From a virus, in the UHGV virus genome UHGV-0109738: a stretch of DNA of 64,000 bases; one strand, given 5' to 3'. Of this stretch, positions 809-939 are shown in pieces. The number at the start of each line of letters is the position of its first letter. Within the stretch, counting starts at the first letter, position 1. The notes under the pieces are model-generated. The model saw only the letters and a list, made by a program, of their open reading frames with translations, had not been told where the DNA came from and searched no databases. The translations under genes and the position numbers were made by a program.

Positions 809-939
809 AGCAATAAATCATAAGTGCTTAATATCTTCGATGCATAAAATTAATTGTATTAGCACATCTAAATAGTATGTTTGTTATGGAATGAGTGTTC
901 CGTGCTCATTCCACATATTGTTTAGTATACGTTGAAATA

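Follow-up and report, generated by a model that had tools for sequence, protein, structure and literature searches.

The junction and its genes

Close to the start of the window, by which is meant the whole 64-kb stretch of DNA analysed, two genes for TIR-type proteins run towards each other and stop on either side of a gap of 131 nt (809-939), and the hairpin considered here lies within that gap (Table 1). The first gene product gives a Pfam TIR_2 match (E 3.6e-18), scores 695 bits against the PADLOC ThsB model PDLC00417 and is a 100% match to the CFT073 tcpC protein, annotated as 'NAD(+) hydrolase TcpC'. The product of the second gene, thsB2, matches Pfam ThsB_TIR (E 2.5e-11) and PADLOC ThsB2 (E 6.8e-91), and that of thsA matches Pfam ThsA_Macro (E 3.3e-64) and PADLOC ThsA (E 4.2e-128). 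A ThsA with a Macro domain and transmembrane helices is therefore found together with a TIR-type ThsB, which is the make-up of a type II Thoeris system.

The corresponding locus of ATCC 25922 has been characterised as type II Thoeris, with ThsB1 (the TIR_2 protein), ThsB2 and ThsA; there thsA and thsB2 are sufficient for defence and thsB2 is required, thsB1 is toxic in laboratory strains, and the full thsA-thsB2-thsB1 could not be cloned (bioRxiv 10.64898/2026.01.22.701046). Toxicity upon overexpression of tcpC/thsB1 is on record from two sources (PMC8147327; bioRxiv 10.64898/2026.01.22.701046). TcpC, the classical virulence TIR protein of uropathogenic E. coli, is thus ThsB1 of type II Thoeris; the name TcpC is never used in the Thoeris preprint.

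The window is 99.9% identical to the island of CFT073, Nissle 1917, 536 and ATCC 25922, where the gene order is traD-mobQ-tcpC-thsB-thsA-small ORF-lipoprotein. The whole 3.4 kb is present in 187 of the 5426 complete E. coli genomes, and the junction (780-960) of those 187 is that of the window except that tcpC stops with TAA and not TGA. All other copies seen have the TAA stop as well, namely the 187 genomes, the 18 metagenome contigs in which this codon is covered, three Salmonella loci (L070-72) and locus L098. Each of 188 E. coli genomes has the hairpin locus at a single place, and tcpC is linked to thsB2-thsA in 187/187 of the complete E. coli genomes that carry it.

Beyond E. coli, TcpC-like TIR genes were seen in Kribbella and Actinocorallia, collinear after thsB-thsA (TcpC-like loci are L047, L051, L053 and L073-L076), and in Salmonella (L073/74) and Klebsiella (L075/76) such genes also stand alone, with no thsAB, past the island's mobQ on its downstream side. 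The conservation of ThsB2 across phyla is unusual, at 60-83% amino acid identity among Actinomycetota, Saccharibacteria and Pseudomonadota (loci L004-L057). Mostly thsB comes first and thsA follows in the same direction; in the enterobacterial islands the two are divergent and in two Pseudomonas loci convergent. E. coli EC77 (NZ_CP196708.1, around 2273000-2289500; L002 and L097) has a stretch of about 16.5 kb from yeeN to traD with two short annotated CDS only, which is A-rich and without long ORFs; the part of it examined is collinear with CFT073 mobQ-tcpC-thsB2-thsA in patches of 71-85% identity with many indels, and is either an extremely decayed copy of the island or a poor stretch of assembly.

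Table 1. Coordinates in the window of the genes, stem-loops and tails at the junction
Feature	Position	Strand	Remarks
tcpC (= thsB1, TIR NADase), 3' part	1-808	+	window begins inside the gene; stop TGA 806-808
Hairpin A, weak	824-865	+ only	closing stem 824-828/861-865; part of the plus-strand minimum-energy fold; about -8 kcal/mol
Extended hairpin B	868-925	+ (tcpC-sense RNA)	outer stem 868-880/913-925, 13 pairs, 2 of them G.U
thsB2-sense tail TAACAAACATACTATTTAG	868-886	-	no U-tract; T-tail score 0.05-0.92
Core palindrome TGGAATGAG-tgttccgtg-CTCATTCCA	887-913	both	9-bp perfect stem, 9-nt loop
tcpC-sense tail CATATTGTTTAG	914-925	+	U-poor beside the stem; T-tail score 0.92
thsB2 (TIR-like, DUF1863; infection sensor of type II Thoeris)	940-1449	-	stop 940-942
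thsA (effector with transmembrane and Macro domains)	1586-2422	+	divergent from thsB2

The core palindrome

The original prediction, made from the letters alone, had placed a hairpin with an 8-bp perfect stem at 889-913, between the stop codons of two convergent TIR-type genes. The convergent arrangement and the stem are as described and the left-hand end is one base off, the arm ggaatgag occupying 888-895 and its partner ctcattcc 905-912, about the loop tgttccgtg at 896-904. A ninth perfect pair, T887-A913, closes the stem to give TGGAATGAG-N9-CTCATTCCA, and on the minus strand it grows to 11 bp by way of 886/914 (G.U) and 885/915 (A-U). The folding in silico that had been proposed as a check bears the structure out, in that both strands fold (plus -13.3 kcal/mol, z -3.9; minus -13.8 kcal/mol, z -6.1) and none of 200 shuffles equals either of them. 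Intrinsic terminators are taken to have a stable stem-loop of about 5-14 bp with G-C pairs, and here there are nine perfect pairs, four of them G-C, worth -12.7 to -13.8 kcal/mol on either strand. The hairpin follows the tcpC stop at 78 nt and the thsB2 stop at 26 nt, and so is close to both. In CFT073 (NC_004431.1) its place is 2203765-2203791.

The pattern is found once in the window even when two mismatches are allowed, and in none of 100 shuffles. Of perfect hairpins as such (stem of at least 9 bp, loop of 3-10 nt) the window has nine, at separate sites, as against 2.5 +/- 1.9 in dinucleotide shuffles, and a single hairpin is by itself only moderately above chance; it is the position and the conservation of this one that lend it credibility. 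A covariance scan of 1-4000 with Rfam 15 at E up to 10 gave no match overlapping 809-939. In IMG/VR the hairpin pattern matched a single true copy of the locus, L098, and by chance two sequences unrelated to it, and a BLAST of the junction against plasmids and phages gave no match.

Some other hairpins of the window were noted in passing. One at 19793-19820, AAAAAACGGGGC-TTAT-GCCCCGTTTTTT, is a textbook bidirectional terminator, and one at 4621-4658 has a 14-bp perfect stem (TAAAATCGGGAGTT...AACTCCCGATTTTA). A second U-poor hairpin lies past the thsA stop, between thsA and a convergent gene of 91/101 aa, at 2435-2461 (ATGGGCGA-N11-TCGCCCAT, then CATATAAT), and its tail opens with the 'CATAT' also found at 914-918. 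The corresponding junction of Salmonella L073 has a different hairpin (AGGCAAAACATG...).

Tails and the missing U-tract

That there is no clean U-tract had likewise been stated at the outset and is correct, the stem being followed by CATATTGTTTAG on the plus and TAACAAACATAC on the minus strand. The run of U residues expected of an intrinsic terminator, some 7-9 nt directly 3' of the stem, is missing on both strands, and so efficient factor-independent termination is unlikely. A discriminant that combines hairpin and tail comes to -51 to -76, strongly negative and far from a canonical intrinsic terminator; it and the weighting of the T-tail follow d'Aubenton-Carafa. A simple consensus scan counts 887-913 among its terminator-like plus-strand sites, with the tail CATATTGTTT, solely because T makes up five of the eight bases read from 2 nt past the stem; the same scan yields five sites in 5 kb, against 2.9 +/- 2.1 by chance. 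Nor is there the A-tract 5' and U-tract 3' of a bidirectional terminator, either in E. coli or in the Salmonella L070 copy. The other half of the bidirectional design is in place, that is one hairpin between convergent stops that folds on both strands (z -3.9 to -6.7). In the minus-strand RNA beyond the hairpin the ratio of C to G is 1.5, 1.1 and 2.7 in successive 60-nt bins, a modest C-over-G bias that is weak evidence for, and would be compatible with, Rho loading.

Structure of the plus-strand RNA

In the tcpC-sense RNA the core is predicted to be part of a larger structure, hairpin B, in which a 7-nt bulge (881-887) separates the outer stem from an inner stem 888-896/904-912. It reaches -23.0 kcal/mol (z -6.65) on the plus strand, and the minus strand retains the core alone at -13.8 kcal/mol. 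Upstream the weak hairpin A is predicted, the support for which is mixed. Taken over the whole gap the plus strand folds to -31.1 kcal/mol (z -3.6) and the minus strand to -20.9 (z -1.9), and the same asymmetry is seen in two of the variants described below, V2 and V3.

The gap has no ORF of at least 20 aa and no promoter-like site ahead of it, and a hidden small ORF or the promoter of a small RNA in 809-939 was on those grounds ruled out. A covariance model of 809-939, run against the window and 25 loci, finds the four known variants of the junction and the decayed EC77 copy only, and no similar element elsewhere, including downstream of other tcpC-like genes.

Hairpins at the same site in sister islands

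Related islands occur in Enterobacter (L003), Hafnia (L059), Salmonella (L060-63), Serratia (L068/L069) and Yersinia (L064-67). The backbone common to all is traD-mobQ-[slot]-thsB-thsA-91 aa-lipoprotein, and their ThsB2 relatives have 79-83% amino acid identity. All six of the sister islands compared have a hairpin centred 37-44 nt past the thsB stop, a range into which the E. coli hairpin falls with its centre at +40. In all but one of the six, Yersinia, the hairpin is of 25 nt and follows the pattern AAAAAA-CCATAGAG-N9-CTCTATGG-TTTTTTT, with the A- and U-tracts flanking it in Enterobacter, Hafnia, Salmonella L060/61 and Serratia, and tail scores are 3.2-5.1 on both strands with Yersinia included. 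The hairpin outside Yersinia is a canonical bidirectional intrinsic terminator, common to thsB and its convergent neighbour. The stems of these islands co-vary with one another, an A-T pair having become C-G in Serratia and a G-C pair G.U in Hafnia.

The E. coli hairpin is like these terminators in its backbone, its thsB neighbour, its centre (+40 against +37 to +41), its size of 25-27 nt and its loop of 7-11 nt. It is unlike those of Enterobacter, Hafnia, Salmonella and Serratia in its stem, GGAATGAG and not CCATAGAG, and in its want of both tracts, the tail scoring 0.05-0.92 against their 3.6-5.1. With the stop codon as anchor the E. coli hairpin lines up with them, four of its pairs differing on both sides from CCATAGAG/CTCTATGG; MAFFT does not place it in register with the sister terminators and prefers a shift of 4 nt. 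Because of this shift we claim a positional analogue and not a proven homologue, and homology with the CCATAGAG terminators is not claimed.

What lies in the slot between mobQ and thsB varies: tcpC in E. coli (L001 5885-6808) and Salmonella L070, nothing in Yersinia (L064 3511-3588), and an ORF of 158-166 aa in Enterobacter (L003 4651-5127), Hafnia (L059 3659-4147) and Salmonella (L060 3638-4138) that has a weak YunG-like Pfam match (E 0.002-0.008) and no PADLOC match; the Serratia slot holds a similar ORF. Between two of the Salmonella contigs, L060 and L061 (around 3539-3563), the stems CCATAGAGA/TCTCTATGG of the terminator are the same and the 7-nt loop is reverse-complemented, GACTTGT in one and ACAAGTC in the other, which looks like a small palindrome-mediated inversion.

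Variants of the junction

Four variants of the tcpC-thsB2 junction are at hand: V1, that of CFT073 and 16 full-length metagenome contigs; V2, of Salmonella L070-72; V3, of L091/L092; and V4, of L098. The last is IMGVR_UViG_2825508220_000005, a 37-kb contig filed as viral in IMG/VR, and the island or a part of it may there have been classed as a virus-like or mobile element. The core palindrome is invariant in the 187 complete E. coli genomes, in V1, V3 and V4, and in a further, truncated contig, L080, which covers 88 nt including the hairpin and matches V1.

V2 differs from the window at 11 of the 131 intergenic positions (8.4%), about the divergence of 4-fold sites in three genes (8-12%). Its sole change in the core is T909C, which makes an A.C mismatch on the plus strand and a G.U, and so pairable, combination on the minus, thsB2-sense, strand. 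A second change, C914T, lengthens the core stem on both strands (A886-T914), turning the minus-strand G.U into A-U, and the V2 stem is worth -9.9 kcal/mol on the plus and -11.7 on the minus strand. Outside the core, and all in the flanking stems of the plus strand, are three further pairs of note: 827/862 in hairpin A, compensated from C-G to U-A in V2, V3 and V4; 879/914 in the outer stem of hairpin B, compensated from G-C to A-U in Salmonella L070; and 875/918, which G875A turns from G.U into A-U in L070. V4 breaks the hairpin A pair 826/863 (A.C) and makes 825/864 a U.G. In the decayed EC77 copy the right arm of the hairpin is lost.

If as many substitutions are placed at random, P for striking the two members of a pair is about 0.012 from V1 to V3 and 0.10 from V3 to V2, and for two pairs from V1 to V2 it is about 0.014; this count of substituted pairs is the sole statistic that is nominally unusual. 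A shuffle control for covariation reached the observed value in 52/500 and 38/500 cases, which is not significant, and the real Salmonella variant folds no better than random mutants that carry as many substitutions (p 0.15-0.51). With a divergence at about the neutral rate, energy and covariation tests that are not significant and the break in V4, selection on the structure is suggestive only.

A probable degenerate bidirectional terminator

The hairpin had been proposed to act as a bidirectional terminator or an RNA-stability element. Its fold on both strands, its position and the hairpins of the sister islands all fit this and support it in part, and what becomes unlikely is an efficient intrinsic terminator, since the U-tract that defines one is absent. 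On the sequence and by analogy with known elements, and with a confidence that goes a little past even, we take 887-913 to be the common 3'-end stem-loop of the convergent tcpC and thsB2 units, a degenerate and U-tract-poor bidirectional terminator that would be assisted by Rho or by collision and would stabilise 3' ends. As the sister islands carry a textbook two-way terminator at the same site, most likely this is an ordinary and rather weak stop-and-protect signal of two converging immune genes in uropathogenic E. coli.

The proposed course of events is that a polymerase coming from either side would transcribe the palindrome and pause as the nascent RNA forms a hairpin of 9-11 bp, which in the tcpC-sense RNA would extend to about 22 bp. 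With no U-tract after the stem, release would be inefficient unaided; polymerases coming head-on from the opposite gene may complete it by colliding, or Rho may do so from the untranslated RNA past the stops, or both may contribute. Exonucleases working 3' to 5' would then trim back to the hairpin, which would set and protect the 3' ends of the two mRNAs and would limit antisense read-through into the partner gene. Pausing, termination, the dependence on Rho or collision and the stabilisation of mRNA at this hairpin are all things that we infer.

Three kinds of known element bear on such a mechanism. In the bidirectional terminators that serve convergent E. coli genes, the stem is as a rule preceded by an A-tract and followed by a U-tract. 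The present element is like those of the ynaJ-uspE type, a subject of SEnd-seq work, in being a single palindrome between convergent stops that folds in RNA from either direction, and unlike them in that both tracts are missing at 887-913. Transcripts terminated by Rho are trimmed back to stable stem-loops, and Dar and Sorek are said to have found in 2018 that stem-loops mark the processed 3' ends of such transcripts; here too a stable hairpin without a U-tract comes soon after a stop and is followed by untranslated RNA with C above G, although the bias is modest and the dependence on Rho putative. REP elements resemble it as palindromes without a U-tract in 3' UTRs or between convergent genes, whereas 887-913 is single-copy and AT-richer and presumably without resemblance to the GC-rich REP consensus. 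That it is itself a REP element was ruled out, there being one copy per genome in the 188 E. coli genomes and a unique occurrence in the window (up to two mismatches). U-less palindromes of the REP kind are in part Rho-dependent terminators and also stabilise mRNA as barriers to exonucleases (bioRxiv 10.64898/2026.03.23.713779), and a bidirectional terminator hairpin of E. coli, although a weak intrinsic terminator in either direction, pauses polymerases and positions head-on collisions that block read-through (bioRxiv 10.1101/2022.10.23.513370).

The hairpin is not described in the literature searched, yet it is an ordinary kind of element. The papers searched on tcpC, c2398-c2400, CFT073 and Nissle contain no 3'-end or Term-seq data for the locus; PMC8147327 has 5' RACE of tcpC alone, the papers on the tcpC promoter have no terminator and no 3' end, and the Thoeris preprint (bioRxiv 10.64898/2026.01.22.701046) makes no mention of terminators or a 3' end.

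Other readings of the hairpin

An efficient and self-sufficient Rho-independent terminator, with hairpin and U-tract and serving chiefly tcpC on the plus strand, is what the consensus scan would suggest, and the stem is stable enough for it (-12.7 to -13.3 kcal/mol, and -23 kcal/mol extended). However the missing U-tract makes this improbable: the tail opens with C and A and scores 0.92 against 3.2-5.1 in the sister terminators, the discriminant is -55, the U-rich stretch 916-924 is predicted to be paired in the outer stem and not free, and the scan's five sites in 5 kb compare with 2.9 +/- 2.1 by chance. That the palindrome has no present function, being a chance palindrome or the relic of a decaying terminator that drifts in AT-rich intergenic DNA, is the rival to which we would give most room while still holding it unlikely. 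It is kept in play by the divergence of the gap, which equals that of the 4-fold sites, and by the energy-based mutation tests and covariation controls that were not significant; chance would supply about 2.5 perfect hairpins as good as this one over 64 kb, and an arm is gone from the decayed EC77 copy. But chance alone does not readily account for the +40 position, which matches the hairpin site of 6/6 sister islands, or for a 25-nt size that matches 5/6, nor for a single core change across the four variants which is pairable on one strand, for two further substitutions that are compensatory in the flanking stems, and for hairpins being 3- to 4-fold above chance in the window.

The strand asymmetry, five G.U pairs confined to the plus strand and the compensatory changes hint at a plus-strand-specific tcpC 3' UTR, and one may ask if a strand-specific structured tcpC/thsB1 3' UTR (824-925, two hairpins) that controls mRNA stability or processing, for one by RNase III cleavage of the extended stem of about 22 bp, could be the main role and termination secondary. 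A reason for such control would be at hand in the toxicity of tcpC/thsB1 when overexpressed, and the plus-strand 131-nt RNA folds better than the minus in V2 and V3 likewise, with compensation at 827/862 and 879/914 (P about 0.012 and 0.10 on the respective branches). We nonetheless doubt it strongly, as V4 breaks a pair of hairpin A, T909C puts a mismatch into the plus-strand core and leaves G.U on the minus strand, the energy tests are not significant, Rfam has no match and the covariance model finds no counterpart downstream of other tcpC-like genes. The least likely rival, and to our mind a very improbable one, is a role at the level of DNA, in which the palindrome would bind a protein or would be a recombination junction or the edge of a cassette for the mobQ-thsB slot. 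The adjoining slot is indeed variable (tcpC, an ORF of 158-166 aa, or nothing), the inverted terminator loop of the two Salmonella contigs tells that palindromes here undergo events at the DNA level, and the ends of the extended palindrome look loosely like integron attC core sites. Yet the centres of the half-sites are 18 bp apart, a spacing that does not fit the helical repeat, no gene for a regulator or an integrase adjoins, and the element occurs once per genome; an operator palindrome was ruled out for the spacing and the want of a partner gene. An attC site has core sites R''/R' (RYYYAAC / GTTRRRY) that pair at the base of an imperfect palindrome, cassettes in the same direction and an integrase. 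Here GTTTAGT (920-926) has one mismatch, its partner in the pairing register (TCTAAAT, 867-873, as R'' box) three, the genes are convergent and so not in cassette order, and no integrase is adjacent, and attC was rejected. A MobQ oriT, which would be expected upstream of mobQ some 2.5 kb off, was ruled out as being in the wrong place.

There is also the thought that the absence of the U-tract is a feature and not decay, and that the hairpin together with the 824-925 plus-strand 3' UTR makes a leaky insulator, with antisense RNA by read-through and processing by RNase III. We put this forward as a long shot. If true, read-through from thsB2 would lay antisense RNA over the 3' end of the toxic tcpC/thsB1, and vice versa, and RNase III would cut the stem of about 22 bp or the sense-antisense duplex, so that the two Thoeris sensors would be coupled and the toxicity of TcpC held down.

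Significance

As a degenerate bidirectional terminator, the preferred reading, the hairpin is of small biological weight. For those who clone or re-engineer the locus, the native junction comes without a strong terminator, and read-through and antisense transcription are worth checking. The locus offers a clear example in which the canonical bidirectional terminator of the sister islands is replaced by a hairpin without a U-tract at the same position. In uropathogenic E. coli the hairpin probably marks where the transcripts of two genes end: that of tcpC/thsB1, which encodes a well-known virulence factor with toxicity upon overexpression, and that of thsB2, whose product is the sensor at work in the type II Thoeris defence against phage.
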